64,000 nucleotides of DNA, from assembly GCA_965226495.1 (NCBI GenBank), contig OZ245365.1:3008001-3072000 (forward strand), written 5' to 3'. Positions within the stretch are counted from its first letter, which is position 1; the number at the start of each line of letters is the position of its first letter. The DNA is from Candidatus Marinacidobacterales bacterium (GTDB lineage Bacteria; Acidobacteriota; Vicinamibacteria; Marinacidobacterales; DATDRI01). The position numbers and the translations under genes were made by a program. Under the pieces are notes generated by a model. That model did not search any database, was not told the DNA's origin, and saw only the letters and a program-made list of their open reading frames with translations. This document shows positions 12,404 through 45,118 of this stretch, piece after piece.

Positions 12404-12453
12404 GCTAGCCCACTTCCCTACTCGACCCGCGTCATCACCAGCTGCGCCGTCGA
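12404..12453. repeat. Right copy of 50-bp degenerate direct repeat
   Basis: 42/50 identical to 5658-5707; overlaps the 3' end of the 12418-12867 gene. Confidence 0.85.
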
Positions 12454-12867
12454 CGGCAGGTCGATGGTGACTTTGTCGCCTTCGACTCGATACTTAGCCC
12501 CGTCGAGGCTCGCCTCCGGCCCGTACCAAACCTCCGTCTCTTGAAACTCTTTCTTCGGATCCATGTGGAGCTCCATCTCCACCACCATGCTGATGGTATC
12601 CGGACCGGTGATTTCGTAGGTGCCGTGGTGCGCCTCCGCGAAGTCTTGGTTCCGTGGGTCACGGTTGAAGAACATGACGTGGAGCCAATGTTTCTTACCG
12701 AACATCATATAGCCGCTGGTTTTGTAACGGACTTGGCTGTCGGCTTTGACGTAGGATTCCATCGACCAAGTCCCTTCCAAATCCAGATTCCCACTCTCTC
12801 CGACCCCTACTCCGATACCAATCGCTACGAAGGCGAGAACCACCGCGAGCGTTACTATTCTCTTCAC
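12418..12867 (-). CDS. Small secreted protein, possibly lipocalin-like beta-barrel
   Basis: GTG start after GAGGAGG; signal peptide; LEGTW motif; last gene of the long minus-strand run. Confidence 0.7.
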   Translation of the reverse strand: MKRIVTLAVVLAFVAIGIGVGVGESGNLDLEGTWSMESYVKADSQVRYKTSGYMMFGKKHWLHVMFFNRDPRNQDFAEAHHGTYEITGPDTISMVVEMELHMDPKKEFQETEVWYGPEASLDGAKYRVEGDKVTIDLPSTAQLVMTRVE

Positions 12868-12897
12868 TTCATCCTCCTCGAAGTTTAGTTGCAACTC

Positions 12898-14316
12898 TCA
12901 TTCGGATGTTGGAGCGGGAGCTCCTTGAAAAGCCAACTCACTCCGCTCGAACAGCCGACCGTTAAGAATGACGACTTCGATATCTCGAAGATTCCTGATG
13001 TCATCCAAAGGATTCCTATTTAGAACGACGATGTCCGCTAGCTTTCCCGCTTCGATCGTACCTAGCCGATCCTCGGCTCCGACCATCATCGCGCCGTTTC
13101 GGGTGCCGGCGACGATGGCATCCATTGGGCTAAGTCCGGACTCGACCAGCAGCTCGAACTCGCGAGGTACGTTGTAACCCTGCAAAGAATGAATGACCGC
13201 GCCTCCTGCATCGGTACCGACGGTAAGTCTGATGCCCGCATCGAAGAACCGCTTGGTGTTCTCCTTCATCGTCGCCAGCGTGTCTCTTGCCCACTGGACC
13301 GAATCCATCTTGAGGATTCCGTCCATCCCGGCCACCGCCTTCTCGAGGTTCTCTTCGTTTTGCAGAGTCTCGGTGACGAAGTCTGGAACGGAGGCCTTCA
13401 AGATAGCACTGTCCCAGAGCTCGGGCTCATCTAGGTATCGGTAGAAGGACTCGAAGAGAACGAGAGTCGGGGTGACGAAGATATCCGCCGCCGCGATTTC
13501 CTCAGGTAGCGGATCGTCGCTCGGCAGAGGGTCCTCTAGCATGTGAACGATGGCACGAGGTGATACCGCTACCGCGTCTCGATACTCTTTGGTGTCCATG
13601 GCGTGGATCATCAACGGCACCCCACCTTCGCGGCAACGCTCGGCAACGAGGGTCATCAACTCCGGGTCCAAGCGAGGAAAAACGTTCGATGCTCCTAAGC
13701 CATTCTCGTATATGACTTTGACCAGATCGATATCCGCTGCGAAGTGGCGGTTCAGACGCTCTTCTACTTCCTCGGGCGTGGCCACTCCGCCCCCATGCCG
13801 CCCGCCCCATCCGCCGGGCGCCGTGAAATGCTCTCCACCGGCGAAGATCCTCGGGGAAACGATCTCCCCGGCACGCTCTTGGTTCCGATGGTTCACGATC
13901 CAATCGGTATCTGGCGACGACAGGTTGATGAGGGTGGTGACGCCGTTGTAGAGGAAGGCCCTCGGATTATTGGCCAGCGCGACCTTCTTCTGATCGTCCG
14001 AGAGCCCGAATCCGTTAGTCGACATGAGATGGCCGTGAGCTTCGATGAGACCGGGAACCAGATACTTCCCGCTAGCGTCCACGATCTCGGCGTTCGCTGG
14101 GACCGACATGTCAGCGGCTCCCACTCTCTCGATGCGGTTTCCCCTAATAACTACAACGGAGTCCGCTTGCGGACCGGCTCCCGTGCCGTCGATGAGCGTC
14201 GCTCCCTTGATAACGAGGGCGGGTTCTCCGCTTTCCGGCTCGACCGGTGGGGCGGCACATGCAGCAGCAAGCGTCGCGGCACCTACGATGAGAGCCCATT
14301 GTGTTCTGCGAAGCAT
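12898..14316 (-). CDS. Amidohydrolase family lipoprotein
   Basis: Lipobox LAAAC; PGLIEAHGH, NGVTT, GTDAG and GKLADIVVL. Confidence 0.9.
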   Translation of the reverse strand: MLRRTQWALIVGAATLAAACAAPPVEPESGEPALVIKGATLIDGTGAGPQADSVVVIRGNRIERVGAADMSVPANAEIVDASGKYLVPGLIEAHGHLMSTNGFGLSDDQKKVALANNPRAFLYNGVTTLINLSSPDTDWIVNHRNQERAGEIVSPRIFAGGEHFTAPGGWGGRHGGGVATPEEVEERLNRHFAADIDLVKVIYENGLGASNVFPRLDPELMTLVAERCREGGVPLMIHAMDTKEYRDAVAVSPRAIVHMLEDPLPSDDPLPEEIAAADIFVTPTLVLFESFYRYLDEPELWDSAILKASVPDFVTETLQNEENLEKAVAGMDGILKMDSVQWARDTLATMKENTKRFFDAGIRLTVGTDAGGAVIHSLQGYNVPREFELLVESGLSPMDAIVAGTRNGAMMVGAEDRLGTIEAGKLADIVVLNRNPLDDIRNLRDIEVVILNGRLFERSELAFQGAPAPTSE

Positions 14317-14326
14317 ATCTGCCTCC

Positions 14327-15724
14327 TCAGCTCGTCTTGTACGCGAAATCGGCCCGAGGATGTACCTGGCCGTCGCGAACGATGAGCTCGATTCGCCGTA
14401 CGTTTTCGATGTCTTCGAGAGGATTGGCTTCGAGAATCAGAAGATCCGCCAATTTTCCCGCCTCGATGGTCCCCAGGGTGTCCTGGACACCGATGATCTC
14501 CGCTCCGACCCGAGTGGCGGCCACCAGCGTCTCCATCGGGCTGAACCCACACTCGACGAAAAGCTTCATCTCCCAAGGCGTGTTGTAACCCTGAAAGTTC
14601 CAACCGACGCGTCCCCCGGCGTCAGTTCCTATCCCTTGCTTGATGCCCGCCTCGTGCATCTTGGTAATGTTTTCCTTGAAAATCGGAATCTTCTCCGCCA
14701 CCCAGTCATAAATGGCGTCGCCGGCAATCTTTTGGAAGCGTGCATGCTCTTCCTCCATGAAGTCGGGGCGCCGCATTCGATCCAGCAGAAAGGTCGGCAC
14801 TGTTCCCACCAGAACCGGATCGTCGAATCCCCCCGGCCGCTCGTCATAGTGGAGAAACGCTTCGAAGAGACTAACGGTCGGGATGACGGCGACATTGTTG
14901 TCTGCCATGTCTTGAAAAAGCGGGTCACCTTCCGGCAGGCGCTCCTCCAAACCGTGGACGATGGCGCGGGGTCGAATGGAAACCGCCTTTCGATACTCTC
15001 TGAGATTGATGGCGTGTACGTAAACCGGTACATCGTCCGCCGCGGCAGCTTCCGCGACGGCCTCGAGCATATCGTCGGGTATCAATGGAACGAGGCCAGA
15101 CTTGTCGGCGAGTCCATCTTCGATCACGATCTTGAAACCGTCAGTACCCCTAGCGATGTAGTCTGCGGCTCGCTGGCGAGCTGCTTCTGCATCTTTGACC
15201 GCGCCTCCGTGCTGGCTTCCCCACCCGCCTTCTGGTGCGAAAGAGCGTCCCATCGCGAAGATCCTAGGCGAGACGATGCTACCTTCTCTCTGCGCGGCGC
15301 GGCGTGCCCAAATCCACTCCTCCGTCGAGGATAAATTGAGAACCGTGGTAACGCCGTTGTAAAGCAGCGAGGTGCCATTGTGCTCGACGATCTGTTCTCG
15401 TTCTTCAGGTGAAATCTGATACGCGATGGGTGCGTCCAGATGGATGTGGGTGTCGATGAGTCCGGGGACGACGAATTTCCCCGTGGCGTCGACGACCGTA
15501 GCCCCGCGGGGCGCCTCGAGATCCGCCCCTATCGCCTCGATTCGGTTGCCGCGAATCCAGATGTTCGCGCCCACCTGTGGGGCGCCACCGGTTCCGTCAA
15601 TGAGAGTTGCATTCTGTATGAATACGCCTTCTTGCAGCGGCTCCGGCTCGCTGCTGCAGGCCCCAAGAGCCCCTACCAAGACGAGCAAACCCCCTAAAGA
15701 ACTACTTTTTACTCTTTTCATCAC
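14327..15724 (-). CDS. Amidohydrolase family lipoprotein (paralog of 12898-14316)
   Basis: Lipobox LGAC; PGLIDTHIH, GTDAG and GKLADLLIL. Confidence 0.9.
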   Translation of the reverse strand: MMKRVKSSSLGGLLVLVGALGACSSEPEPLQEGVFIQNATLIDGTGGAPQVGANIWIRGNRIEAIGADLEAPRGATVVDATGKFVVPGLIDTHIHLDAPIAYQISPEEREQIVEHNGTSLLYNGVTTVLNLSSTEEWIWARRAAQREGSIVSPRIFAMGRSFAPEGGWGSQHGGAVKDAEAARQRAADYIARGTDGFKIVIEDGLADKSGLVPLIPDDMLEAVAEAAAADDVPVYVHAINLREYRKAVSIRPRAIVHGLEERLPEGDPLFQDMADNNVAVIPTVSLFEAFLHYDERPGGFDDPVLVGTVPTFLLDRMRRPDFMEEEHARFQKIAGDAIYDWVAEKIPIFKENITKMHEAGIKQGIGTDAGGRVGWNFQGYNTPWEMKLFVECGFSPMETLVAATRVGAEIIGVQDTLGTIEAGKLADLLILEANPLEDIENVRRIELIVRDGQVHPRADFAYKTS

Positions 15725-15828: not shown

Positions 15829-17073
15829 TCAGACTTCAACCTTCCTCTCCAAGAGCGTGTATAGCACAACGATGGCGACGAGCGGCATGGTTCCCACCAA
15901 GATGAAAACGGGTGAATAGCCAACGTGGTCTACCAGCCATCCAGTGCCGAGTGTGAGGGCCAGGCCCCCCAGACCGGCCCCCATTCCGCTGAGGCCGGTC
16001 ACCGAGCCGACCGCCTCGCGGGGAAAGGCTTCGCCACAGAGCGACATCATGTTGGGTGCCCATAGCCCGAAGCCGAAGGTCGCCACACTGATCCCCGTGA
16101 AGGTGACCAGGATCGGAAACGGGAAAGCAGCGACGGCGCCCGCGGTCATCATGATCATTCCAGCCGCCATAACGATCAATCGTGCGTTGACGACGCGAAA
16201 ATCCCTTCGGATCAACCGATCGGAAAACCATCCACCGAGCAAAATCCCTACTCCTTGGGTGGCAAACGGAATCCACGCGTAGCGACCTATCTCGGCGAGA
16301 CTGAACCCGGCGCCGCGTTTCAAGTATTCCGGCAACCAATAGTGGTAGAACCATGAATTGGGATCGGCAAACATGCGCGCAAGTATGACGGCCCAAACAC
16401 TCCGCGAGCGCAGCAGCGAGAGATACGGTATACGAGAGCTGGACGGGACCACGGGCTCGTTCTCTTTGATCAGCTCGAGCTCGGAATCGGTAATACGCGG
16501 ATGCTGTTCGGGTAGTCGGTAAGATGTCCACCAGACGAATACCCAAACGATGCCCACCAATCCCGTCAAAACAAAGGCCGCCCGCCAACCGAGCCAGAGT
16601 GTGATCCAGGCCACCAGCGGCACCGAGACAACCAACCCTACACTGGTTCCCACGCCCCAGATACCGTTGGCCAGGCCGCGCTCCTGCTTGGGAAACCACT
16701 CCGAGACCCCGCGCACACATGCCGCCCAACTTCCCGCCTCTCCGACCCCCAGGAGAAAACGGAGGATCGAAAAGGACATCACGCCTCTCCCGAAACCATG
16801 GAGCATGGCCGCCGCCGACCACCAGAGCATGATGATCGCGAAGCCCTTGCGAGTCCCGATGCGGTCGATCACCCAGCCGGTTACCGGCTGCATGACGGTG
16901 TAGGCGATGAGGAAGCTAGAAAGGATGCGGGCGTAGCCGAAGTTGGAGATGCCTAAATCGTCCCGGAGCGTCGGCGCGACGACCGCGAGCGTTTGCCGAT
17001 CGACATAACTGATAGCGGTGGCGAGGAACAGAAGCGCCACAACCCACCAGCGGAGATTGGGAATCTTTCGCAC
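15829..17073 (-). CDS. MFS transporter (ACS/ExuT-like)
   Basis: ISYVDRQTL, DRIGTRKG, RFLLGVGEAG and EWFPKQERG; multiple TM segments. Confidence 0.9.
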   Translation of the reverse strand: MRKIPNLRWWVVALLFLATAISYVDRQTLAVVAPTLRDDLGISNFGYARILSSFLIAYTVMQPVTGWVIDRIGTRKGFAIIMLWWSAAAMLHGFGRGVMSFSILRFLLGVGEAGSWAACVRGVSEWFPKQERGLANGIWGVGTSVGLVVSVPLVAWITLWLGWRAAFVLTGLVGIVWVFVWWTSYRLPEQHPRITDSELELIKENEPVVPSSSRIPYLSLLRSRSVWAVILARMFADPNSWFYHYWLPEYLKRGAGFSLAEIGRYAWIPFATQGVGILLGGWFSDRLIRRDFRVVNARLIVMAAGMIMMTAGAVAAFPFPILVTFTGISVATFGFGLWAPNMMSLCGEAFPREAVGSVTGLSGMGAGLGGLALTLGTGWLVDHVGYSPVFILVGTMPLVAIVVLYTLLERKVEV

Positions 17074-17116: not shown

Positions 17117-18016
17117 TTAACGGGCGCGTATCATTTCTAGAATCGCTGCAAACAGCTCGCTATCCGCATCACCCAGTGATCGAGCGGTCTCCGCATGGTC
17201 CATGCCTTCGAGCACGAGGAGCTTCGCGTCGACTCCGCTGCGCTTCAGTTTTTCGGTGAACTCCCGAGATGACTCTCCGTACGGCTCGTCCGTGCCGACG
17301 GCGATCACGAAACGTGGCGAAGGGTGGTTGATATTGAAGAACGGCGCCGCCATCTCGCGATCCGCCTCGTCGATGAATCCGGGCAGCCCGCTGATGTCTT
17401 TCAGGTGATAGGGGCCGCTAATCGGCGCCGCACCCTTGATGAGCCCCAAGGGAACGCCGTGCTTTTCCCCCCACACGCCATTTGCACCCGCGAAACCCGA
17501 CAGAGTGGCTCCTACGGAATGTCCGCCGACATAGACAAGCTCGGGGTCGCCACCGAAAGACGCGATGTTCTCGTGAATCCAAGCTACCGCCGCGGCTACG
17601 TCCTCGGACTGGGCGGGGAAACCGAAACCGTCCACGGTCAGTCGGTAGCTCGCCACCGCAGTGATGATCCCGTGCTCGGCAAAAGGAAGAGCCACTCCCC
17701 CGTAATGCGCACGGTCGCCCTCACGGAACCCGCCACCGTGTAGAAACAAGAAGGTTGCGGCCCCGTCCGGTTTTTCCTTGGGTAGATAAAGATCCAGCTT
17801 TTGCTTGGGATCTTTGCCGAACGCCAGGTCCAAGTGGTGAGGCAGCTCCTTACGCGCCTTCGCGGTGTCAGCATCGTTCGCATCGTAGAACGCAACCCAA
17901 TCGATGCTGAACTCGCCCGCTTTCTGTTGCGTGTAGTACTTCGATCGATCCTGCGCCGACGTCGAAGCGGTCGCGAGTAGGTAAACCAACACGACCCAGA
18001 TTGCCGCCTTGCTCAT
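17117..18016 (-). CDS. Secreted alpha/beta hydrolase (HSL/arylformamidase-like)
   Basis: Start MSKAAIW after AAGGAG; HGGG oxyanion motif, GHSVG nucleophile, C-terminal DH. Confidence 0.85.
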   Translation of the reverse strand: MSKAAIWVVLVYLLATASTSAQDRSKYYTQQKAGEFSIDWVAFYDANDADTAKARKELPHHLDLAFGKDPKQKLDLYLPKEKPDGAATFLFLHGGGFREGDRAHYGGVALPFAEHGIITAVASYRLTVDGFGFPAQSEDVAAAVAWIHENIASFGGDPELVYVGGHSVGATLSGFAGANGVWGEKHGVPLGLIKGAAPISGPYHLKDISGLPGFIDEADREMAAPFFNINHPSPRFVIAVGTDEPYGESSREFTEKLKRSGVDAKLLVLEGMDHAETARSLGDADSELFAAILEMIRAR

Positions 18017-18033: not shown

Positions 18034-18930
18034 CTAGGACTTCGGCGGTACGTCGATCACCATGGCGTCCTCCGCCAGGATGACTTCGCCTGAGAAGATC
18101 TTCTTCGCATCTTGAACGATCTTGTCCCAAATTTCGGGCGAGCGACGCTTACCGTAGTACATCGAAGCCATCTCGATCGCCGCATCGCTCGAGGTGTAGG
18201 GACCGAGGTGAGTCAGGATCAGCGTCTTGACCCCTGCCTCCTGGGCAACTCTCGCGGCGCCCGAGGGGCCGGAGTGGCTCCACATCTTGCGTTCCTCGAT
18301 GATCTCATCCAGAAACGCCGTATCGTGAATGAGGTAGTCCGCCCCGCGCGCGAGATCGATCATTCCTTGGCAGGGGCTGGTGTCGCCGCTGATCGCGACG
18401 ACTCCATAGGGACTCTCGACCCGATAGCCCACAGAAGGCAAGCCAACCCTCTGATGGTGCTCGACATCTCCCGCAATGACTTTGAAGTTGCTCCCTTCGT
18501 ACACGAACCCGGGCTCGATGTCTTCGACCTCTACGGCCGGCGTGTCGATCGGCTTGTGCTTGATGTGAGGAGGCAAGGCCTTGATGTATCCCCTCACGAA
18601 ACCGACATCCGCCTTATGGGCCTCGAAGATCGTAGAGTGTGACATGTGACGCGTCCCAGTTGGACCGTAGACTTTCAATACTTTGCTGCGACCACAGTTC
18701 CAGGTGGTCATGATCAAGTAGCCGTAGTCACACATGTGATCCCAGTGCAGGTGGGTGAAAAACAAGTGGTCGACGTCCATCGGGTTTATCCCAGTTTTCA
18801 CCAGGTTGACAGTCGTTCGCTCTCCGCAGTCAAACACGAGGATGGTATCGTCGATGATCACCGCCTGACTCGGATTTCCTCGGTCTGGGTCGGGAACGGC
18901 CGATCCCGAACCGAGAATCGCGACCTTCAT
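18034..18930 (-). CDS. MBL-fold metallo-hydrolase (RNase Z/AtsA arylsulfatase-like); the SD-preceded ATG at 18977 is out of frame
   Basis: LGSGS, DCGE, THLHWDH, SGDT and THL motifs. Confidence 0.88.
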   Translation of the reverse strand: MKVAILGSGSAVPDPDRGNPSQAVIIDDTILVFDCGERTTVNLVKTGINPMDVDHLFFTHLHWDHMCDYGYLIMTTWNCGRSKVLKVYGPTGTRHMSHSTIFEAHKADVGFVRGYIKALPPHIKHKPIDTPAVEVEDIEPGFVYEGSNFKVIAGDVEHHQRVGLPSVGYRVESPYGVVAISGDTSPCQGMIDLARGADYLIHDTAFLDEIIEERKMWSHSGPSGAARVAQEAGVKTLILTHLGPYTSSDAAIEMASMYYGKRRSPEIWDKIVQDAKKIFSGEVILAEDAMVIDVPPKS

Positions 18931-18990: not shown

Positions 18991-19638
18991 TTATCGCCCG
19001 TCCACTCGCGCTAGATAGTCTAAGGCTTCCTTGAGAGTGACAACGTCACCATACCGTTGATCGATATCGATGAGATTCGCCTCATTCGCCAGCGGCGATC
19101 GATCACCCACCGCCTCTCGAACAACCAGGGGACGAAAACCGTGTTGGGCCGCATCGACGGCCGAGGCCCTCACGCAACCGCTGGTCACGCACCCGCAAAT
19201 CAGCAGCGTGTCGATCCCGCGTTCCGAAAGCCGCGGGGCGAGGTCGGTACCGAAAAAAGCCGATCCCTGCTGCTTCGAGACGACGAGATCCGTATCCCGG
19301 CGCGGCAATCGAGGGTCGACGCGAGTCCAACGAGAGCCCTTCTCGAGGACGGCGACCCGCGGCGACTTCACGCCTAGCAAGAGCCTCTTCCCTTCATCGC
19401 CAACGTATTCGACGGTCGTGAAAACGGTGGAGATCCCACATCGCTCCGCCGCTTTCAAGATCTGGATCGTCGCGTCGATCTCCCCATCCCAATCGCCTCC
19501 GAGGGGAGACTCCTTGCTGGTGAAACCCTCGATGAAATCAACAACCAGCACGGCGGGGGCTTTACCAGCACCCATGCGAGGCGCGCAGGTGTACGGGTAA
19601 TGAGTCCGAATCCCCGCTAGCAGGTCTTCTGTTGTCAT
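18991..19638 (-). CDS. Isochorismatase-family cysteine hydrolase (N-carbamoylsarcosine amidase/maleamate amidohydrolase-like)
   Basis: VVDF, SKQQGSAFF and TSGCVRASAVD catalytic triad motifs; TGATG coupling with the DinB gene. Confidence 0.88.
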   Translation of the reverse strand: MTTEDLLAGIRTHYPYTCAPRMGAGKAPAVLVVDFIEGFTSKESPLGGDWDGEIDATIQILKAAERCGISTVFTTVEYVGDEGKRLLLGVKSPRVAVLEKGSRWTRVDPRLPRRDTDLVVSKQQGSAFFGTDLAPRLSERGIDTLLICGCVTSGCVRASAVDAAQHGFRPLVVREAVGDRSPLANEANLIDIDQRYGDVVTLKEALDYLARVDGR

Positions 19639-26940: not shown

Positions 26941-27004
26941 GTCCTCCAATGTCCTATTTCCAGATCGGACGTTTGTCCCATTCAGAGATCTGGCCCGTGC
27001 CCCC

Positions 27005-34044: not shown

Positions 34045-34050
34045 AGTGAC

Positions 34051-39119: not shown

Positions 39120-40414
39120 GTTGAAGCCTCCTCACGAAACTGGAGCGGATAAAGCACTCTCATCCCTCCGCTGTAAACCACCATGGTGACAATGAGGGAC
39201 ACGATGGGTTGAATCATCTCCGGCGGCGCGAGGCGGCCGGCGACCACGCCCACCGCGATCGCGATGAGCGCCGCCAGGTTCACGCCCCGCGTGTAATGAT
39301 AGCCTCCGTCTTTCTTGTAGAGATCTCCGAGGCGCGGTCGCCGCGCCCTCACCAAGAAGTAGTCCGCGAGCAGGACGCCTACCAGGGGGGCAAAGATGAT
39401 CCCCAACGTGACAAGAAACTGCGCTAGGTAACGGGTTATACCAAAGCACCCGAGCGTGGTGCCGAGGATACCCAGGACTAGGGTGTGAAACGCACGGGAG
39501 CGGCCGGGGAAGACATTAGTAAGTGCCAGCCCCCCCGAGTACAGGTTCTTGTCGTTCGTGGTCCACGTGGCGAAGATGATGAGAAGGAGCGCCGGGATCC
39601 CCAGGCCGAGCTGTTGAACGCCCAACACCGGATTCCACTCTCCGCTCACAAGGCGAGAGAGTGCGCCGAGACCAATCATCAAAGCCGAGACCGGAACGAT
39701 CCCGGTCCAAATGCCAAGCCATAACGATCGATGATCCCTCGAGTAACGAGAAAGATCGGAAGACGTAAAAGCCGCGGTGAATTGGCCTGATACCATGATG
39801 TTCATTCCCGCCATGAAAGTCAGGCTGCCATCACCCGGCCGACTGACGACCTCCCAGAAAGGATGCTCGGAGGCAATCTTCCAGAACAAGACGCCCGAGA
39901 AGACGACGAGGACTGGCACTGCCAGGTTTGCCAGCTTTTGAATCCAACCGAATCCCATCACTGCGATGACCACGTTGAGCGCTCCCATCACGCATATCAT
40001 GAGAATCGGTGAAGAGAAGCCGCTCATCCTTTCCAAAACACCGTCGGCAGCAAGCCCGGCCAGCTCTGCCTGGAATGCAAACCAACCGACTCCGGAAACC
40101 GTGATCGCCAGGGATGCGATCCACGTCCCCGACGGAAACCCCAATGATGAGCGTGTCAGCACCGACACAGGGAGACCGTGATCCGCTCCCGGGTAACCGG
40201 TCAAACTAATGATCGCCGCGGCGACGGTATTGCCGATGAGACCCACCAGGATCGCCTGCTTGAAGGAAAGCCCGGGAAGAAAAATGCCCCCCATCATCAT
40301 CATGGGCAAGCAAACGTTGATTCCCGCATACATAGCGAAAAGCGAGAACCAACCGCGAGTACGGGAGGCAGCGGGGACGGCGTCAACGCCGAAAGATTCG
40401 GCTTTCAGGGACAA
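39116..40414 (-). CDS. NCS1-family (cytosine/hydantoin) permease
   Basis: Multiple TM segments; GWFAFQ, SDLSRY, WTTNDKNLYSGGL and ADYF. Confidence 0.9.
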   Translation of the reverse strand: MSLKAESFGVDAVPAASRTRGWFSLFAMYAGINVCLPMMMMGGIFLPGLSFKQAILVGLIGNTVAAAIISLTGYPGADHGLPVSVLTRSSLGFPSGTWIASLAITVSGVGWFAFQAELAGLAADGVLERMSGFSSPILMICVMGALNVVIAVMGFGWIQKLANLAVPVLVVFSGVLFWKIASEHPFWEVVSRPGDGSLTFMAGMNIMVSGQFTAAFTSSDLSRYSRDHRSLWLGIWTGIVPVSALMIGLGALSRLVSGEWNPVLGVQQLGLGIPALLLIIFATWTTNDKNLYSGGLALTNVFPGRSRAFHTLVLGILGTTLGCFGITRYLAQFLVTLGIIFAPLVGVLLADYFLVRARRPRLGDLYKKDGGYHYTRGVNLAALIAIAVGVVAGRLAPPEMIQPIVSLIVTMVVYSGGMRVLYPLQFREEAST

Positions 40415-40429: not shown

Positions 40430-40468
40430 AGAGAGAAAAGGGCCGGCTGCGGTTTCCCGCAGCCGGCC
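40430..40468 (-). terminator. Intrinsic terminator-like hairpin after the TBDR gene
   Basis: Minus strand GGCCGGCTGCGG-gaaa-CCGCAGCCGGCC followed by CTTTTCTCTC. Confidence 0.65.
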
Positions 40469-40492: not shown

Positions 40493-43400
40493 CTAGAAGT
40501 CGACCTTAAAGCCGATCTGGACCTCACGACCGGGGAAGGCCTCGACGGTGCTGCCGAAGACATTACCCGTACAGCCGCCCGGATCGGGCAGGCCGTTGCC
40601 GGTCGAGTCTTGACAGGTCGAGTTCAGCACGAACGGGTTCGCACGGTTCGTCAGGTTGAAGAACTCGATGAGCGCCGTGAAGTTGTTCCCTTCTCCGAAC
40701 GGCAGGTTCCACGCCAGCCGGAAATCGATGTTGAAGAAGTCCGGTCCAAAGAACTCACCCTTCTCCGTTCCGAGGAGACGATTGTCGAAGATGTCGTCAC
40801 CGTCGGTGTCGAACGGAAGTCCGGCTGCGTTGAACGGGCGACCCGACTGCCAGTCCGCCCGACCCGAGATGTCAAAGCCGGCAGGTAGTCGATACAAACC
40901 GCTGAAGACCATCACATGCTTCGGTGTGTTCAAGCTGACGCCAATGTCACGCTCTGGAAAGTTGTTCCACAGGAAGCTGATCTCGGCGCCGCGCGGCGGC
41001 ACTCTCAGCGTCGAGAAGTTGTCGGTAGCGTCGGTGAACGTATAGCTCAGCAAGAAGTTGTAGTTATTGCGGAATCGCTTCTGCAAGGCAAGGGTCAACG
41101 CGTTGGTATCCAGGAACCCGAGGTTCTCGATCTCACTGAGGCAAGGCCCTGGTCCATCGACGGTGTTCCCGGTGCAGCTACCAGCGATGGGCTCAAGCAG
41201 CAAGTTCACCACGCGACGCGACAGAAGATCCTTCGAGCGTCGGATGTGAAACTCGGCGTCGAGCGTGAAGTCGTCGGTGAGGGCCTGCTCGACACCGAAG
41301 TTCAAGGCGTCGGTGTAGGGCAGCGAATGGTCGTCCGACAGTGTCGTGATGCGAGTCACCTCGACGTCGAGCTGCCGGAATTCGAAAACCAACGGACGGT
41401 TATTGACGATGCTCGCGTCCCCTCTCTGCTCGAGATACCTGAACTGCTCACCTGCCCCGAACGGGTGGGGAAAGGCCTCATTGAGGATTTCCACTGCGGC
41501 TTCCGGAGAGAGCCTTCCTCCGGTGAGCTCCGGAATGCTGTCGAAGGTCAGCACCGGCGGTACACTGGGGTCGTCGACCTTGATGCCGAGAAGGTCGTAG
41601 ATGACGTAGGGATTACCCTGTCCGGTGATCACCGAGTCTTGCATGGTCACCCCATCGCGCCTGATGGTGAACGTACCCGGTGAGGTCAGCGTAAAGCCCT
41701 CCGGCATGATTTGCTCGAAGAGCGACGGGTTCGTGAGCACCCGGCTGCTCGACGCCTGCAGCGGCCCGAACGCTCCGAGTGCCGGATTGTTGTAGAAGGA
41801 AGCTCCTCGAGGAATCGTCTGCAAATCCTGGGTGGCGAGCTGGATGCCGCCCAACTCCGGTGTGAACGCGATGACTTCGGCAACGCTCACATCGTAGAAC
41901 CGACCCCAACCGGCGCGGAGGATCGTCCGTCCTTCCTGCTTCAAGTCATAGGCAATTCCGGTCCGCCATGCCACGCCACCGCTACTGAACAAGCTCGCGT
42001 AGTCCCAGCGCACGCCGAGATTCAGAGTGATCCCGGGTTTCGGCTCCCAAGAGTCCTGACCGTAAGCGGCCCAGTTGTTCGTGCTACCGATCGCCCGGTT
42101 GTTGTCCGGCCCGGAGCCCTCCACGATGACGCGGTTGCCGAGTTGTGCGCTGATGTCGTAGCCAAGACTCTCGAAGTTACTGTCCAGCGCTGAATTGCCA
42201 ATGATGATGCCCTGCGGTGGTGTGAAGAAATGATCGATCGCCACGTGATCCAGGTCTATGCCAAACTTGAAGGCATGGCTTCCCGTGCTCTCCGAGTCCA
42301 TGAAGTACGACAAATGCTCCTGCCATTGCCACCGCTCTTGAGAACGATCGACCTGTCCCACTCCGGATGAATTCGACACAAAGATTTGGAAATTGGGCAC
42401 GAAAATCAGCGGGAACAGCTGCTCCGCGGAAGCCGGTTTCTCCGCGTTCTCTTTGAAGGTGCTATCCCAATACCGGAGAGACGACTCGAGGAACGCGGTG
42501 TCGCTGAAGAACCCCGTGTGGCGACCGTTGAGGCTGTTGGTGTTCCGGTCGATGTCCGAAGCCGTCGAGGGCAGCGTAATCGTCCCCGGCGGCGGCGATC
42601 CGAATAACGCCGTCGCAGGCGGCTGGAAGTCATTCTGCGACCCGCGGTTCAGGTTCCACGTCACGAACACCTGATTCTTCGCGTTGAACCGGTGATCGAA
42701 TTTGAACAAGTTCGTGATCCTCGAGTCCTCGGGAACCGCGTCCAGCGGCTCACCACCCGTGGCTGGCGAAAAATAGCCGGCCCGCAAAATGGGTGTCAGG
42801 ATCGACTGGTCCAAGTTGGACCCACGGCTTTCCTTCACGTACTGGAACGCATCGAAGAAAAACGTGCTGTCCGTCTTAATCGGACCACCGATCGTCCCGC
42901 CAACCTCGTATCGCTCGAGCGCTGGGACGTCCTGACCGTCGACGTTCGACGAGTTCAGCGAATCGTCCCGGATGAAAAAGAACCCCCGCGCGTCGACCTG
43001 GTTCGTTCCAGAGCGCGTCACGATGTTCGTCACCGCACCCGACGCCCGGCCGTACTCTGCCGGATACCCTGCCAGGTAGACCTTGAACTCCTGAATCGCG
43101 TCCTGCACGAAAAACTCCGCCGCACCACGCGTCCACAGGTCGTTGGCATCGTTTCCGTCGATCAGGAACGAGTTCGAGATCGCTCGCTCACCGAAGACGG
43201 TGAACGTCGTCCCCTGGTCTGAGGCCGAAGGCCGTTTCGCCACACCCGGAACCAACTCGACGAGATCGATGAACTCCCGACCCTTCAACGGAATGTTGTC
43301 GATCGTCCTGTTGTCGATAGGAACGCCGAGACCTGATTCCTTCACTCGAACAGGGGCGGAGTCGGCCATGACCGTAATCGTCTCTTCCACTCCCGCGAGT

Positions 43401-43738
43401 TGAAGCGAGACCGAGACACGGACCGTCGTCCCGACCGGCACAGTAATGCTGGTCACCGTTTCCGTCGCAAAACCCGACAACTCTACTTTGACCTGATACG
43501 TACCGGCCTGGAGAGCCGGTATGAAGTACCCGCCCGAACCATCCGTCGTTACCGTCACCGTGCCGCGAATCAGCGTCGGGCTGCTGGCGGTCACACTCGC
43601 GCCAGGCAAAACCGCGCCGCCCTGGTCGCTGACCGTCCCTTCGATGGTACCGGTAATGCCCTGCGCCGTAACCACGGATGTCGCCATCAGCAGAAACGCT
43701 GCGAAGAAAATAGGAACTCGAATGTAGAAAGATCTCAC
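40493..43738 (-). CDS. TonB-dependent receptor, Oar-like, with N-terminal carboxypeptidase-regulatory-like domain
   Basis: Signal peptide; GTVSDQGGAVLPGASV, AEYGRASGAV, QDSW, LNLGVRWD; C-terminal KVDF. Confidence 0.93.
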   Translation of the reverse strand: MRSFYIRVPIFFAAFLLMATSVVTAQGITGTIEGTVSDQGGAVLPGASVTASSPTLIRGTVTVTTDGSGGYFIPALQAGTYQVKVELSGFATETVTSITVPVGTTVRVSVSLQLAGVEETITVMADSAPVRVKESGLGVPIDNRTIDNIPLKGREFIDLVELVPGVAKRPSASDQGTTFTVFGERAISNSFLIDGNDANDLWTRGAAEFFVQDAIQEFKVYLAGYPAEYGRASGAVTNIVTRSGTNQVDARGFFFIRDDSLNSSNVDGQDVPALERYEVGGTIGGPIKTDSTFFFDAFQYVKESRGSNLDQSILTPILRAGYFSPATGGEPLDAVPEDSRITNLFKFDHRFNAKNQVFVTWNLNRGSQNDFQPPATALFGSPPPGTITLPSTASDIDRNTNSLNGRHTGFFSDTAFLESSLRYWDSTFKENAEKPASAEQLFPLIFVPNFQIFVSNSSGVGQVDRSQERWQWQEHLSYFMDSESTGSHAFKFGIDLDHVAIDHFFTPPQGIIIGNSALDSNFESLGYDISAQLGNRVIVEGSGPDNNRAIGSTNNWAAYGQDSWEPKPGITLNLGVRWDYASLFSSGGVAWRTGIAYDLKQEGRTILRAGWGRFYDVSVAEVIAFTPELGGIQLATQDLQTIPRGASFYNNPALGAFGPLQASSSRVLTNPSLFEQIMPEGFTLTSPGTFTIRRDGVTMQDSVITGQGNPYVIYDLLGIKVDDPSVPPVLTFDSIPELTGGRLSPEAAVEILNEAFPHPFGAGEQFRYLEQRGDASIVNNRPLVFEFRQLDVEVTRITTLSDDHSLPYTDALNFGVEQALTDDFTLDAEFHIRRSKDLLSRRVVNLLLEPIAGSCTGNTVDGPGPCLSEIENLGFLDTNALTLALQKRFRNNYNFLLSYTFTDATDNFSTLRVPPRGAEISFLWNNFPERDIGVSLNTPKHVMVFSGLYRLPAGFDISGRADWQSGRPFNAAGLPFDTDGDDIFDNRLLGTEKGEFFGPDFFNIDFRLAWNLPFGEGNNFTALIEFFNLTNRANPFVLNSTCQDSTGNGLPDPGGCTGNVFGSTVEAFPGREVQIGFKVDF

Positions 43739-44143
43739 GCCGAACCTCCTTCGGGGTTCTCCCGAGTTTGAAGGGAAACGATGGACGTTTGCTGCGAAAT
43801 GGTCCGAGTGTGCACCTTCTTTGGCATGTCCGAAGAAGGCAACTCAGGGCAATGGGAAGACAACCCCAGCGAGAGTACCGTATTAAAGGATAGCAGCGCG
43901 CCCATATGACTCCGATCGAGGAGCCTCACGGCCTAACCTGTCACCCCGGCCGTGACAGCCAGAATGGACGGACTTTACCCTGCCCCCGTCAACGCTGTCA
44001 AGGGCAAAACAGGACAAAATACGGGTCACCCGGAGCTGGGCGACGGACGGCCAACGGCCAAAACGGGGCAGACCCGGGGATATACATTGAGAAGCGGCTT
44101 CTGTTACAGTACGCGTGACAACCGTCCCATGGGGGTGGACTCT

Positions 44144-45118
44144 ATGGTTCGTGCGAAGGAACCGGCTCGAATCGATCTCCAGATCCGGCAGGACTCCCTA
44201 CTTTCACCTGAGCAACAGCTGATTAGCCAGCTGAAGCTGGCGATCATGTTGGGCGAGTTGAAGCCCGGCCAAACCCTCCCTTCGGTTCGCGAGATTGAAG
44301 GCCAGACAGGCATCGGACGAAATGTCGTCTGGCGCGCCTACTCGAAGTTAGCCGAACTGGGTGCACTCACTATCCAGCAACGCAAGCGCGCCGTGGTGAG
44401 CTTAAGTGCGGACCCGGCCCGCGCGTCCGAGCTCGTGGCGGTCTACGACTGGCTGGGACGAGACTTTTTGGACCGAATTCGGGCCCTTCGAGTGAATCCG
44501 CAATCTTTCCTACGTTACATGGATCATCGACTCCAGGAATCCGATGCGATCCAACACGACACGGTTTTTGTCGAGTGTTGCAAGGTGTTCGCGCAGTCTT
44601 GGTCGGTGGAGATCTCACAGCGATGGGGTGTACTCGTTCCCGGTTACGACTTCAACAAGATGCGAAACATGTCGTTCGATGAGCGGGCTCGCTTCAAATC
44701 CGTCTTGGTTCCACTTGCACATCACGAAGAAGTGCTCGAATTGTTTCAGAATCCCCACACGCAAGTCATTCCCCTGACGTTCGTTTGGGACCAAAAGATC
44801 ATCCAGGGGCTCCAATCGCTCCCGGAGGGCTCCGCACTAGTCCTGTTCTTCGCGCCATCCGCCTACTCCGATCCCTGGGTGCGGGAGCTCCGAAGCCTTT
44901 GCCCCAATTTGACCATTGACGTTGTGCCCTATGAAAGCCCACAACAAGTCCAGAAGGTCATCGCGTCGAGCAAGTATCAGCGGATTCACGTGAGTGGAGC
45001 CGTCATCGATGATGTGTACAGCGAGGTGAGGGCTCGTCCCGATTTCATCCAACAACCTCTCCAACTGGACCTGCGATCCCTGGAGGAGGCACGCATCCAG
45101 GCGGGCGTGGTTTTGTAA
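44144..45118 (+). CDS. GntR-family transcriptional regulator with long C-terminal domain (alternative start 44129)
   Basis: GELKPGQTLPSVREI...GRNVVWRAYSKL wHTH; divergent from the TBDR operon. Confidence 0.85.
   Translation: MVRAKEPARIDLQIRQDSLLSPEQQLISQLKLAIMLGELKPGQTLPSVREIEGQTGIGRNVVWRAYSKLAELGALTIQQRKRAVVSLSADPARASELVAVYDWLGRDFLDRIRALRVNPQSFLRYMDHRLQESDAIQHDTVFVECCKVFAQSWSVEISQRWGVLVPGYDFNKMRNMSFDERARFKSVLVPLAHHEEVLELFQNPHTQVIPLTFVWDQKIIQGLQSLPEGSALVLFFAPSAYSDPWVRELRSLCPNLTIDVVPYESPQQVQKVIASSKYQRIHVSGAVIDDVYSEVRARPDFIQQPLQLDLRSLEEARIQAGVVL

Follow-up and report, generated by a model that had tools for sequence, protein, structure and literature searches.

A composite 24-gene array possibly directed at peptide-like, amide-rich organic nitrogen in a marine acidobacterium

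Introduction

What does a gene array consume that joins a TonB-dependent receptor (TBDR), secreted hydrolases, inner-membrane transporters and a divergent regulator? Such an array lies within the 64-kb window (the whole stretch of DNA analysed here), and the initial annotation read it as a locus resembling polysaccharide utilisation loci but devoted to amide or cyclic-amide substrates. That reading survives in part: the layout recurs, but the amidohydrolases (AHs) are of carboxypeptidase type, a hairpin follows the TBDR gene and the array resembles a mosaic of cassettes. We give roughly even odds (about 0.5) to the reading of a composite array that catabolises peptide-like, amide-rich organic nitrogen and whose cassettes were assembled in this lineage.

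Results and Discussion

Layout of the array

The ORF listing with translations, together with Pfam and NCBIfam scans, delimits a minus-strand array of 24 co-oriented genes (12418-43738; G01-G24) that is 97.8 % coding. As first described, the genes often overlap (8/23 junctions, seven by 4 nt and one by 1 nt) and face a divergent GntR gene at 43952-45118; the widest intergenic gaps are 136, 127, 104 and 78 nt. Over-long starts were corrected for five genes (G05, G07, G09, G12 and G21), after which ATG, GTG or TTG opens every array gene. Signal peptides, judged by eye from the translations, are present in G02, G03, G05, G10, G11, G12, G14, G15, G16 and G17 and probable in G01, with lipoboxes, likewise by eye, in G02 (LAAC), G03 (LGAC) and G15 (LVSC). 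All gene families originally named were recovered by Pfam and NCBIfam, and the absence of a recognised glycoside hydrolase was borne out, as the Pfam scan returned no such family among 25 ORFs. The array itself contains no classical peptidase. No enzyme reaches its NCBIfam equivalog cut-off, and therefore none was assigned a substrate.

Regulator and receptor

43952..45118, + strand: G25, GntR-family regulator, divergent from the array (PF00392, 1.6e-12, residues 88-149)
43939..44120, no strand: candidate operator pair TGTCAC-N7-GTGACA (motif search, divergent intergenic region)
40493..43738, - strand: G24, Oar-type TBDR, 1081 aa, with signal peptide (Pfam)
40441..40468, - strand: terminator-like hairpin with a 12-bp stem, between G24 and G23 (78-nt gap)

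The C-terminal ~240 aa of G25 have no Pfam match even at E<=5, and its look-alike clusters, which carry GntR and in part PF27163 YmtS_Ross, are 281-326 aa long. Because of this length, and because the longer ORF contains a promoter-like site for the TBDR, the true start is probably 44144, giving 324 aa. That site is sigma-70-like (44001-43972, score 10/12). The two best matches to TGTCAC-N7-GTGACA, a perfect copy at 43939-43957 and one with a single mismatch at 44102-44120, both fall in the GntR/TBDR divergent region; at up to two mismatches the window holds four matches against 1.9 expected, a number reached by 13 of 100 shuffles, so the motif is not significant overall. We infer from sequence that the pair and the promoter-like site are candidate control elements.

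G24 carries the CarboxypepD_reg, OMP_b-brl_4 and TonB_dep_Rec_b-barrel families, with matches to PF25183 (1.2e-58), PF13620 (2.8e-17) and PF00593 (1.8e-9) and a weak Plug domain (E 0.2, residues 154-234). The hairpin beyond its stop codon has 11 G-C pairs in its stem and a GAAA loop, followed by CUUUUCUCUCUU, and folds at -30.7 kcal/mol (z = -4.4; 0/200 shuffles fold as well). Since so strong a terminator-like structure stands directly 3' of the receptor gene, co-transcription of the TBDR with the 23 downstream genes is doubtful, and with it the description of the run as TBDR-headed.

Amidohydrolases

12898..14316, - strand: G02, AH lipoprotein, lipobox LAAC (41.5 % identical to G03)
14327..15724, - strand: G03, AH lipoprotein, lipobox LGAC (Pfam, NCBIfam, PDB)
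20898..22337, - strand: G10, secreted AH (Pfam, NCBIfam, alignment)
22362..23744, - strand: G11, secreted AH (NF051886, 250 bits; Cc2672, 5.8e-48)
25546..26949, - strand: G14, secreted AH (NF051886, 226 bits; 48 % identical to G11)
37944..39119, - strand: G22, cytoplasmic carboxypeptidase-type AH, 391 aa, without signal peptide (NF051886, PDB)

These six PF01979 proteins divide as first proposed, five with signal peptides (two of them lipoproteins) against the cytoplasmic G22, and NF051886 is the best NCBIfam match of each. G22, which overlaps G23 and G21 by 4 nt each, scores 262 bits against this Xaa-Pro dipeptidase model (cut-off 500) and matches PDB entries 9kov (1.8e-58) and Cc2672 (3mtw, 9.3e-52). 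Five of the six retain the HxH, Lys, His and Asp columns; in the alignment, the metal-binding His that follows the conserved Lys in the others is replaced by Asp in G10. The best PDB matches of the set are the Arg/Lys carboxypeptidase Cc2672, Sargasso Sea dipeptidases, ochratoxin amidohydrolases, PuhB and MolA, with substrate ranges taken from PMC11342369. By homology, all six fall in the carboxypeptidase/dipeptidase-type clade (Cc2672, Sargasso Sea dipeptidases, ochratoxin amidohydrolases), which displaces their earlier portrayal as generic C-N hydrolases; nothing in the analysis shows the bulkiness once ascribed to the substrate.

Accessory hydrolases and redox genes

12418..12894, - strand: G01, small protein with a hydrophobic N-terminus, last array gene (no family)
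17117..18016, - strand: G05, secreted alpha/beta hydrolase of HSL/BD-FAE type (Pfam, NCBIfam; signal peptide MSKAAIWVVLVYLL...)
18034..18930, - strand: G06, cytoplasmic MBL-fold hydrolase, RNase Z-like (Pfam, NCBIfam)
19638..20138, - strand: G08, DinB-superfamily protein (PF12867, 9.2e-14)
20266..20895, - strand: G09, FMN nitroreductase-family protein (PF00881, 4.6e-30)
23756..24820, - strand: G12, secreted PF00756 esterase (1.2e-29; signal peptide MKLRTFWIALCF...)
27005..28966, - strand: G15, soluble PQQ-dependent dehydrogenase, lipoprotein, LVSC (PF01011, 1.4e-191)
28963..29940, - strand: G16, secreted MBL-fold hydrolase, RNase Z/GntH-like (PF12706, 5.1e-11)
29937..31316, - strand: G17, secreted dihaem cytochrome c, distantly CCP/MauG-like (two CXXCH motifs)
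31313..32305, - strand: G18, NADPH:quinone oxidoreductase, MDR family (TIGR02824, 4.1e-72, 243 bits, cut-off 297)

The two secreted serine hydrolases noted earlier are present (G05, Abhydrolase_3/BD-FAE; G12, PF00756). The second MBL hydrolase, G16, looks secreted too from its N-terminus, judged by eye, and its NCBIfam matches lie below cut-offs. G15 reaches 413 bits against TIGR03074 (cut-off 833). G17 has no Pfam match at 1e-5; CCP_MauG appears below cut-off at 4.7e-5, and its atlas look-alikes are Cytochrom_C/CCP_MauG clusters. It adjoins a PQQ dehydrogenase here and in comparison locus L011, while in L004 and L010 its neighbour is a GFO_IDH_MocA oxidoreductase; it probably serves the adjacent dehydrogenase as redox partner. 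Neither Pfam nor NCBIfam places G01 in a family at 1e-5 (its Lipocalin_4 match has E 0.027), and the gene runs convergently towards an RND pump gene (AcrB family, 9265-12381, + strand).

Transporters and cytoplasmic ring opening

15829..17073, - strand: G04, MFS transporter of anion:cation symporter type (PF07690, 4.7e-62)
18991..19638, - strand: G07, isochorismatase-fold cysteine hydrolase, N-carbamoylsarcosine amidase homologue (PDB)
24817..25530, - strand: G13, hydantoin/allantoin-type racemase of the Asp/Glu/hydantoin racemase family (PF01177, 4.4e-35)
32332..34044, - strand: G19, HyuB copy 2 (PF02538, 1.4e-154)
34181..35908, - strand: G20, HyuB copy 1, metal-dependent ring-opening subunit (PF02538, 9.7e-158)
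35905..37947, - strand: G21, HyuA, ATP-binding subunit of hydantoinase/lactamase (PF01968, PF05378, PF19278)
39116..40414, - strand: G23, NCS1 nucleobase/hydantoin-type cation symporter (PF02133, 5.3e-44)

Subunit roles for HyuA and HyuB follow PMC8453981. The best PDB match of G21 is N-methylhydantoinase (7hk5, 5.8e-121), then 6yra (2.2e-106), and it reaches 536 bits against CapA, below the cut-off of 1000. G19 and G20 are 77.5 % identical, and the 136-nt gap before G19 is the site of a third HyuB in close relatives (three HyuB genes in each of L001 and L002). G13 matches hydantoin racemase (3qvj, 3.6e-30) and allantoin racemase (5lfd, 7.7e-26) and shows by eye two Cys motifs, FCAAD and LGCTG. 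G07 matches a solved N-carbamoylsarcosine amidase (26st_A, 1.4e-51 over residues 18-212; 1nba, 6.7e-28), with the vvvD, vK and tSGCVRA stretches conserved. Among the transporters, G23 matches TIGR00800 ncs1, CytX and cytosine permease, each below cut-off, and G04 reaches 280 bits against TIGR00893 (cut-off 395).

This cytoplasmic set (NCS1, AH, HyuA, two HyuB, hydantoin racemase and N-carbamoylsarcosine amidase homologue) resembles the known ATP-dependent hydantoin route, and so the characterised pathways in which a hydantoinase that uses ATP, a hydantoin racemase and an N-carbamoylsarcosine amidase take part (PMC6742649 and PMC8864220). The statement that this is not a described pathway holds, in the literature searched, for the locus as a whole, whereas its cytoplasmic part does have characterised pathways that it resembles.

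A second locus in the window

50248..59104, - strand: second, smaller locus of like kind (Pfam, NCBIfam)
55844-59104, - strand: TBDR, 52.8 % identical to G24
54316-55830, - strand: AH
53257-54294, - strand: luciferase-like monooxygenase (Pfam)
52717-53214, - strand: 165-aa protein of no family (Pfam scan)
51248-52756, - strand: AH
50248-51201, - strand: MBL hydrolase, closing gene, 51.6 % identical to G06
48959..50203, + strand: MSOX/MTOX-family N-methyl-amino-acid oxidase homologue (PF01266, 5.6e-37)

The second locus stands 6.5 kb from the array. Both its AHs are secreted (NF051886, 165-168 bits), bringing the AH genes of the window to eight, six in the array and two here. The arrangement of TBDR, secreted hydrolases, inner-membrane transporters and regulator is real and recurs, as this locus and the Gammaproteobacteria loci below indicate.

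The MSOX/MTOX homologue belongs to the plus-strand run after the GntR gene; it scores 164 bits against N-methyl-L-tryptophan oxidase (cut-off 257) and 137 bits against soxA_mon (cut-off 480).

Comparison with other genomes

We compared 80 loci, all anchored on G17, whose constant presence is therefore by construction. Two close relatives conserve the gene order, L001 from G23 to G08 (83-96 % identity) and L002 from G22 to G07, the TBDR position lying outside the compared DNA in both. In L002, G16 is internally deleted, G12 is split and G09 is a remnant; some array members are therefore dispensable. In other phyla the cassettes stand apart. L022 (Acidimicrobiia) has the G04-G07 set without HyuAB, and L016 has AHs alone with G17. 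AH-HyuA-HyuB-NCS1 recurs in L010 (56, 53, 63 and 24 % identity), and on Haloferax volcanii pHV4 HyuA (53 %) is accompanied by HyuB, a racemase and an Xaa-Pro peptidase, with a peptide ABC transporter encoded divergently. No homologue of the cluster hydrolases or transporters was found in 62 of the 80 loci (E<=1e-8, >=50 % coverage); their G17 is 46-52 % identical, and many of them lie on short contigs.

TBDRs occur in 14/80 loci, namely all 11 from Gammaproteobacteria, where they are of the classical 757-761 aa type and unrelated to G24, and L014, L015 and L017, where they are Oar-like. Nine of the 11 Gammaproteobacteria MAG loci group homologues of G03, G05 and G10 (50-59 % identical) and the dihaem protein G17 around the classical TBDR, here of 761 aa. 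Both L014 and L015 encode M28, S9/DPP-IV, TBDR, AH, G17 paralogue, M19, Amidohydro_3 and M23 (L015 also M20), and a Novosphingobium plasmid has a TBDR-AH pair with divergent M19 and M14 genes.

Judged by these homologies, the array pieces together cassettes found separately in other phyla, a mosaic that need not serve one common substrate. Because all six AHs fall in the carboxypeptidase clade and paralogous loci carry classical peptidases, peptides or N-acyl-amino acids are the likeliest and most economical class of periplasmic substrate.

Proposed route

The array is organised by cell compartment, like polysaccharide utilisation loci, and the following route is built from homologies, with the order of steps inferred. 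Substrate would cross the outer membrane through the Oar-type TBDR G24; TonB-dependent peptide import exists in RagAB (10.1101/755678). In the periplasm, G02, G03, G10, G11 and G14 may remove C-terminal or N-acylated amino acids, alongside the serine esterases G05 and G12 and the MBL hydrolase G16, while the PQQ dehydrogenase G15, with its putative dihaem cytochrome partner G17, would oxidise an alcohol or aldehyde group. The NCS1 symporter G23 and the anion-type MFS transporter G04 would then bring small cyclic amides or ureides, together with acidic fragments, into the cell. A five- or six-membered cyclic amide might be opened in the cytoplasm by the ATP-dependent hydantoinase/lactamase, composed of one HyuA (G21) and two presumably interchangeable HyuB ring-opening subunits (G20 and G19). 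The two-cysteine hydantoin-type racemase G13 would equilibrate the stereocentre, and the cytoplasmic AH G22 and the N-carbamoylsarcosine-amidase homologue G07 would release the free amino acid. G25 is the predicted controller of the divergent promoters.

Our literature search found no description of such a locus; the component families are known, and their assembly as a whole is undescribed in the literature searched. The array apparently allows a marine acidobacterium to take up peptide-like or cyclic-amide nitrogen compounds, trim them and open their rings.

Organization of the array

The gene inventory of the initial annotation was borne out almost item by item by the ORF list and its translations and by Pfam and NCBIfam scans. 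Its failure to recognize any glycoside hydrolase also holds: families of glycoside hydrolases, polysaccharide lyases and carbohydrate esterases are all absent from the Pfam matches of the 25 ORFs (array genes G01–G24 and the divergent GntR gene G25). The ends of the array are formed by two genes:

12418–12894, minus strand: G01, last gene of the array
40493–43738, minus strand: G24, TonB-dependent receptor (TBDR) end of the array

Five ORFs (G05, G07, G09, G12 and G21) were considered over-extended at their 5′ ends because they overlapped the preceding gene, and their starts were reset to the first Met preceding the Pfam domain and abutting the upstream gene. With the corrected starts, the array comprises 24 genes on one strand and is 97.8 % coding, with overlaps at eight of the 23 junctions (seven ATGA-type overlaps of 4 nt and one of 1 nt) and four gaps longer than 70 nt (136, 127, 104 and 78 nt). 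Reading the N-termini by eye, we noted probable signal peptides in G02, G03, G05, G10, G11, G12, G14, G15, G16 and G17, and perhaps in G01, with lipoboxes in G02, G03 and G15. G12 belongs to the Pfam family PF00756 ('putative esterase').

The receptor G24 has the Oar architecture of an N-terminal CarboxypepD_reg domain and a TonB-dependent β-barrel (PF13620, 2.8e-17; PF25183, 1.2e-58; PF00593, 1.8e-9), with a weak Plug match (PF07715, E value 0.2, 12.6 bits against a cut-off of 23.9) at the expected position (residues 154–234). Directly 3′ of its stop codon lies a hairpin with a 12-bp stem (11 G-C pairs) followed by a short U-rich tract, with a fold of −30.7 kcal/mol (z −4.4) that was matched by none of 200 shuffles; this structure may terminate or attenuate transcription, or stabilize the TBDR message. 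Apart from this hairpin, promoter and terminator scans inside the array resembled those of shuffled sequence and were uninformative on operon structure, terminator-like sites showing no excess (20 versus 15.6 ± 4.7 expected; 19 versus 18.1 ± 4.1).

The motif TGTCAC-N7-GTGACA was considered as a GntR operator and is not significant window-wide (four matches versus 1.9 expected, with 13 of 100 shuffles reaching four); it is kept as a candidate operator because its two best matches fall in the divergent intergenic region, where an inverted-repeat scan found only two 10-nt pairs. Atlas look-alikes of the GntR regulator were confined to GntR/YmtS_Ross-type clusters and gave no clue to an effector.

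The second locus and the flanks

The window contains a second, shorter locus headed by a TBDR:

50248–59104, minus strand: TBDR, amidohydrolase, luciferase-like monooxygenase, 165-aa familyless protein, amidohydrolase, MBL hydrolase

Its TBDR is of the Oar type and 52.8 % identical to G24, and its MBL hydrolase is 51.6 % identical to G06. Here, 13 nt separate the TBDR gene from the first amidohydrolase gene, without a hairpin structure comparable to that behind G24.

Between the two loci, a run of four genes is co-oriented with the GntR gene. The first, 62 nt after it, encodes a 757-aa protein with a signal peptide, a sulfatase domain and a long TPR region (45180–47453, plus strand). The second (47466–48351, plus strand) is a decayed G12 paralogue in which residues 25–164 (61.7 % identity) and 230–349 (37.5 %) lie in different frames and residues ~165–229 are missing; a pseudogene or a frameshift from assembly is the probable explanation. 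A small cytochrome c (48427–48882, plus strand) and an MSOX/MTOX-family FAD oxidase homologue (48959–50203, plus strand) complete the run. The oxidase, which lies outside the array and on the other strand, matched the N-methyl-L-tryptophan oxidase model at 164 bits (cut-off 257) and the soxA_mon model at 137 bits (cut-off 480), and by homology would suit a role in oxidizing sarcosine or another N-methyl amino acid.

On the left flank of the window are an rve-family integrase (1036–2175), an M19 membrane dipeptidase (4535–5662) and an RND efflux set (OEP, 6284–7624; HlyD-type, 7621–9141; AcrB, 9265–12381), the AcrB gene converging on G01. The right flank (59481–64000) carries a molybdenum hydroxylase large subunit, a serine β-lactamase/PBP-fold hydrolase that comes closest, below cut-off, to the model of the methyl acetate hydrolase AcmB, and a gene for an MFS transporter that is truncated by the end of the window.

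Comparison loci

For comparison with other genomes we used G17, which is central and specific. It has no Pfam match at 1e-5, and we assign it as a secreted dihaem cytochrome c on account of two CXXCH motifs and weak matches to CCP_MauG and Cytochrom_C; an AlphaFold2 model built on a 15-sequence alignment (A1) was too poor for a fold search (mean pLDDT 49.5, pTM 0.44). A genome scan with a 15-sequence alignment as query gave 437 confirmed relatives, of which 80 loci were kept and searched by local tblastn with the 25 window proteins. As the loci were chosen through G17, its presence in each is by construction, whereas its association with amidohydrolases, esterases and TBDRs is not.

The closest loci, L001 and L002, come from Candidatus Marinacidobacterales MAGs (class Vicinamibacteria) and keep the gene order from G23/G22 to G08/G07 at 74–96 % identity; both sequences end short of the expected TBDR position. 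In L002, G16 lacks residues 70–215 (10151–10681), G12 is split between frames (14879–15936) and G09 is represented by residues 151–204 only (18854–19006), reflecting either accessory-gene decay or assembly error. The same two MAGs carry second G17 paralogues (L014 and L015, 60–64 % identity), which lie between an M19 dipeptidase and an Oar-type TBDR accompanied by an amidohydrolase. Encoded nearby are M28, S9/DPP-IV, Amidohydro_3 and M23 proteins, with M20 also in L015, and the setting is plainly peptidolytic.

Loci L003–L013 derive from 11 MAGs labelled as Gammaproteobacteria (one as Enterobacteriaceae) and have G17 proteins 77–80 % identical to that of the window. A G03-like amidohydrolase (53–55 %) adjoins G17 in ten of the 11, and nine also have G05-like (49–52 %) and G10-like (58–59 %) proteins; the L003 contig spans 5.8 kb, and the organization of L011 differs. 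Pfam analysis of L004 and L010 revealed two or three further amidohydrolases; a GFO_IDH_MocA oxidoreductase precedes G17, and a 761-aa TBDR with the classical Plug-plus-barrel architecture is encoded between the amidohydrolase and the esterase. L004 additionally encodes an SNF transporter, GcvT and a fused 1202-aa HyuAB matching N-methylhydantoinase at 6e-138, and L010 contains an amidohydrolase-HyuA-HyuB-NCS1 cassette (56, 53, 63 and 24 % identical to G22, G21, G20 and G23, respectively). In L011, G17 (77 %) adjoins a PQQ dehydrogenase (35 % identity to G15) and a creatininase-TPR fusion (11429–15327), with two Rieske oxygenases, an aminotransferase and a TBDR upstream.

Elsewhere, G17 lies amid four amidohydrolases in L016 (Acidobacteriota) and adjoins a cassette of MFS, isochorismatase, MBL and α/β hydrolase genes in L022 (Acidimicrobiia; 58, 55, 64 and 30–47 % identity to G04, G07, G06 and G05, respectively). 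In L017, which lacks cluster homologues, a TBDR-like barrel is encoded at a distance of 4.5 kb. The remaining 62 loci (G17 46–52 %, many on short contigs) returned no homologues of the cluster hydrolases or transporters at E≤1e-8 and ≥50 % coverage, and three of them returned weak G18-like matches. Using six TBDR queries in tblastn, which may miss divergent TBDRs, we detected a TBDR in 14 of the 80 loci (L003–L013, L014, L015 and L017).

The identity of the window G17 to the proteins of the Gammaproteobacteria-labelled MAGs (77–80 %) exceeds that to the L014/L015 paralogues (60–64 %) and far exceeds that of the neighbouring amidohydrolases (50–59 %). These identities hint at a transfer of G17 from one phylum to another or at an unusual constraint on it.

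These loci bear on the direction of transport. Secretion of a protein can depend on a TBDT, as described for Myxococcus Oar and the protease PopC (PMC6434023), and the Oar-type G24 might by analogy export some of the signal-peptide-bearing hydrolases to the cell surface or medium, where amide hydrolysis would take place. By the by-eye reading, ten or eleven array proteins have signal peptides. We consider this very improbable: gammaproteobacterial loci with homologous amidohydrolases use an importer-type Plug-plus-barrel TBDR, three of the secreted array proteins are lipoproteins, and two inner-membrane importers are encoded.

Amidohydrolases

All six array amidohydrolases of PF01979 (G02, G03, G10, G11, G14 and G22) have the Caulobacter Xaa-Pro dipeptidase model NF051886 as their best NCBIfam match (138, 119, 154, 250, 226 and 262 bits), and none reaches its equivalog cut-off of 500 bits. 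Because of this shortfall (119–262 bits), the six are classed by homology as relatives of the NF051886/Cc2672 clade, not as equivalogs. In a PDB search with three of them (G22, G11 and G03), the best solved relatives were the Arg/Lys carboxypeptidase Cc2672, dipeptidases from the Sargasso Sea (with Cc2672: Sgx9359b, Sgx9355e and Sgx9260c), and ochratoxin-degrading amidohydrolases and ochratoxinase (ADH3, LlADH and AnOTA), with phenylurea hydrolase B (PuhB) and molinate hydrolase (MolA) more distant. Enzymes of the Cc2672 clade are described as cleaving the C-terminal amino acid off dipeptides, N-acyl-amino acids or ochratoxin A (PMC11342369).

The binuclear metal-ligand set (HxH, carboxylated Lys, two His and Asp) was inspected in alignment A2, in which the second His of HxH, K168, H229 and D300 (G22 numbering) do not vary. 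All six array proteins have a complete HxH, and the ligand columns are intact in five, whereas in G10 the His column that follows the Lys is occupied by Asp; in both amidohydrolases of the second locus, N-V-H replaces the HxH metal motif. The five secreted enzymes (460–479 aa) contain insertions relative to most of the solved relatives (403–427 aa).

G22 was considered as a creatinine deaminase and rejected, as it has no CodA-type match; cytosine-deaminase models are absent from its NCBIfam matches, which are carboxypeptidase-type. G03 gave weak cytosine-deaminase matches (about 35–40 bits versus cut-offs of 403–438, NCBIfam). A tblastn search of plasmids with G11 returned relatives of ≤33 % identity only. 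Of the two plasmid contexts inspected, that in Pseudoalteromonas shows only a divergent S8 peptidase; on the Novosphingobium plasmid, a TBDR-amidohydrolase pair lies divergent to peptidase genes of the M19 and M14 families.

The array paralogues are only 24–48 % identical to one another, which rules out recent tandem amplification and implies that they are old or independently acquired. Independent acquisition would suit a catabolic gene island whose parts share no substrate and in which rearrangement has packed separate cassettes served by several weak internal promoters: the TBDR; NCS1-amidohydrolase-HyuABB; quinone oxidoreductase-cytochrome-MBL-PQQ dehydrogenase; amidohydrolase-racemase-esterase-amidohydrolase-amidohydrolase-nitroreductase; DinB-amidase-MBL-esterase-MFS; and amidohydrolase-amidohydrolase-small protein. 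Separate cassettes do occur in other phyla (L010, L016, L022 and Haloferax pHV4, described below), the 136-, 127-, 104- and 78-nt gaps coincide with cassette borders, the TBDR gene is followed by a hairpin, and content varies among close relatives (three versus two HyuB genes; decayed G16, G12 and G09 in L002). However, the single-strand, 97.8 % coding packing of all 24 genes includes overlaps across proposed borders (G18/G17 and G13/G12), terminator-like sites show no excess inside the array, and enzymes of these classes are again combined with unrelated TBDRs in other lineages and with the TBDR of the second locus. We regard an island of this kind as unlikely, though tenable.

Hydantoin-type cytoplasmic genes

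Pfam places G21 clearly in the HyuA family and G19 and G20 in the HyuB family. The best solved relative of G21 (HyuA) is N-methylhydantoinase (5.8e-121, 408 bits), followed by 6yra (360 bits). HyuA and the HyuB proteins scored 536 and 215–233 bits, respectively, against the NCBIfam caprolactamase model (cut-off 1000), and no specific model was passed. In the homologous caprolactamase, ATP-dependent activation of the lactam is reported for the A subunit, whereas the metal site for ring opening resides in subunit B (PMC8453981). By analogy with these subunit roles, the combination of one A with two B subunits (G19 and G20, 77.5 % identical) suggests alternative ring specificities. L001 and L002 have three tandem HyuB genes to the two of the window, where the 136-nt gap (34045–34180) is at the place of their middle copy (L001, 5567–7285; L002, 4338–6044).

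G22, the cytoplasmic carboxypeptidase-type amidohydrolase, overlaps the HyuA gene by 4 nt, and G23 is an NCS1 permease. G13 matches hydantoin racemase (3qvj, 3.6e-30) and allantoin racemase (5lfd, 7.7e-26) and shows two Cys motifs by eye, whose cysteines we take to be the catalytic pair of hydantoin-type racemases. G07 is by sequence an N-carbamoylsarcosine amidase homologue of the isochorismatase fold (26st_A, 1.4e-51 over 195 residues; 1nba, 6.7e-28), in which the D, K and C stretches align, presumably forming the Asp-Lys-Cys triad of its family. Pfam returned no Peptidase_M20 match in the array that would represent an M20-type N-carbamoyl-L-amino-acid amidohydrolase (HyuC), and G07 is the candidate decarbamoylase.

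With its HyuA and HyuB proteins, hydantoin-type racemase, homologue of N-carbamoylsarcosine amidase and NCS1 permease, the array resembles two ATP-dependent hydantoin routes: N-methylhydantoinase plus N-carbamoylsarcosine amidase in creatinine degradation, and hyuA/hyuB with a racemase in Pseudomonas sp. NS671. The gene set of strain NS671 includes hyuC and hyuE. The hydantoinase of this strain is described as consisting of HyuA and HyuB subunits (PMC8864220). In contrast to these routes, the array lacks a CodA-type deaminase and the M20-type amidohydrolase, pairs one HyuA with two HyuB proteins (three in relatives), overlaps HyuA with a carboxypeptidase-type amidohydrolase and embeds the cassette among secreted hydrolases behind a TBDR.

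The core of the array could nevertheless be a known small-molecule pathway for creatinine/N-methylhydantoin or 5-substituted hydantoins, with the TBDR and secreted hydrolases as unrelated neighbours. The substrate would enter through NCS1, be opened by HyuAB with ATP to an N-carbamoyl amino acid and be decarbamoylated by G07; in the creatinine case, the resulting sarcosine would be oxidized by the nearby MSOX-like oxidase at 48959–50203. The steps of the N-methylhydantoin branch of creatinine degradation are described in published work (PMC6742649, PMC8864220) and suit the best matches of G21, G07 (with its aligned catalytic stretches) and G13 as well as the NCS1 permease, and the SNF transporter, GcvT and fused HyuAB of L004 and the creatininase-TPR gene of L011 point the same way, as does the hairpin that separates the TBDR from this core. 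However, the carboxypeptidase-type G22 does not replace the missing creatinine/cytosine deaminase, the racemase would be superfluous for N-methylhydantoin because that compound is achiral, and the HyuA and HyuB scores fall far below the caprolactamase cut-off. G07 lies 13 genes from HyuAB and elsewhere (L022) travels with MFS, MBL and α/β-hydrolase genes, and the pathway would not account for five secreted amidohydrolases, the two esterases, the PQQ dehydrogenase or the repeated linkage to TBDRs. On balance, a pathway of this type appears unlikely.

A different context is provided by the best plasmid-borne relatives of G21, which are haloarchaeal (53–56 % identity). On Haloferax volcanii pHV4 (HVO_RS03525-03575), HyuA (53 % identity to G21) heads a run of HyuB, an Asp/Glu-racemase-family protein and an Xaa-Pro peptidase, with an oligopeptide/dipeptide ABC transporter encoded divergently. 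This locus follows the same logic as G23–G19 plus G13; it differs in being archaeal, in having the ABC transporter in place of NCS1 and a TBDR and in that its peptidase belongs to the annotated Xaa-Pro peptidase family, not to the amidohydrolases, and it is known from annotation alone. Peptide company for these amidohydrolases and this HyuAB subfamily is the common message of the Haloferax, Novosphingobium, L014 and L015 contexts.

Relation to known systems and proposed function

The initial annotation had proposed a PUL-like locus for amide or cyclic-amide substrates. The observation itself was confirmed, and its interpretation was supported only in part. As in PULs (SusC/SusD, Bacteroidota) and RagAB, the genes for a TonB-dependent transporter lie together with those for hydrolases (secreted or lipoproteins), for transporters of the inner membrane and for a regulator; the RagAB system of Porphyromonas gingivalis is described as applying this scheme to peptides (10.1101/755678). 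Unlike these systems, the 25 ORFs contain no SusD/RagB family at E≤1e-5 (Pfam), the gene after the TBDR being that of the NCS1 transporter, and no CAZyme family, the hydrolases belonging to the amidohydrolase superfamily rather than to glycosidases or classical peptidases. The TBDR is Oar-type with a CarboxypepD_reg domain, and the host is an acidobacterium. The locus thus works like a PUL or a RagAB peptide system but, lacking a SusD/RagB partner and CAZymes, is a member of neither.

Word searches of open-access text found no published description of a TBDR-amidohydrolase-hydantoinase locus, no paper on 'Marinacidobacterales' and none on a TonB-dependent, amidohydrolase and peptide gene cluster in Acidobacteriota. 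The arrangement is real, unusually large, recurrent and built from known families, and peptide-like or cyclic-amide nitrogen is a credible substrate lead.

The homologies, packing and recurrence of the array are direct results; the order of steps, their compartments and the peptide-like or cyclic-amide substrate class are tentative deductions. In the boldest reading, to which we assign a probability of roughly 15 %, the locus would be a dedicated system for natural products of the cyclic-peptide type (diketopiperazines, ureido-linked peptides or depsipeptides) with an ATP-dependent ring-opening route. The TBDR would import the compound, and periplasmic esterases and specialized carboxypeptidase-type amidohydrolases would linearize and trim it. 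HyuA/HyuB would then use ATP to open the ring that remains, a cyclic dipeptide or a hydantoin-like one, with ring specificity set by interchangeable HyuB subunits (two here, three in relatives); epimerization of the ring would fall to the racemase, and cleavage of the opened dipeptide to G22. Opening of cyclic dipeptides is an activity not yet assigned to the HyuA/HyuB family, and no literature joining 'diketopiperazine' and 'oxoprolinase' was found among the matches listed. The Haloferax HyuA-HyuB-racemase-Xaa-Pro peptidase run by a peptide ABC transporter and the amidohydrolase-HyuA-HyuB-NCS1 cassette of L010 fit this cyclic-peptide route. For the working of the array as a whole, under any reading as one system, the TBDR is the weakest link because the strong hairpin sits directly after its stop codon.

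To our knowledge, Oar-type TonB-dependent receptors are very numerous in Acidobacteriota, and their cargo is almost entirely unknown. The array, its paralogue in the window and the analogues in marine Gammaproteobacteria tie TonB-dependent receptors to batteries of secreted amidohydrolases and provide a testable idea for the cargo of some such receptors: peptide-like or cyclic-amide organic nitrogen. They also define an uncharacterized enzyme set, comprising five secreted carboxypeptidase-type amidohydrolases and a hydantoinase/lactamase with swappable B subunits, for which the genomic context narrows the substrate libraries. If the cyclic-peptide reading is true, the locus would represent a missing turnover route for diketopiperazines or related natural products.
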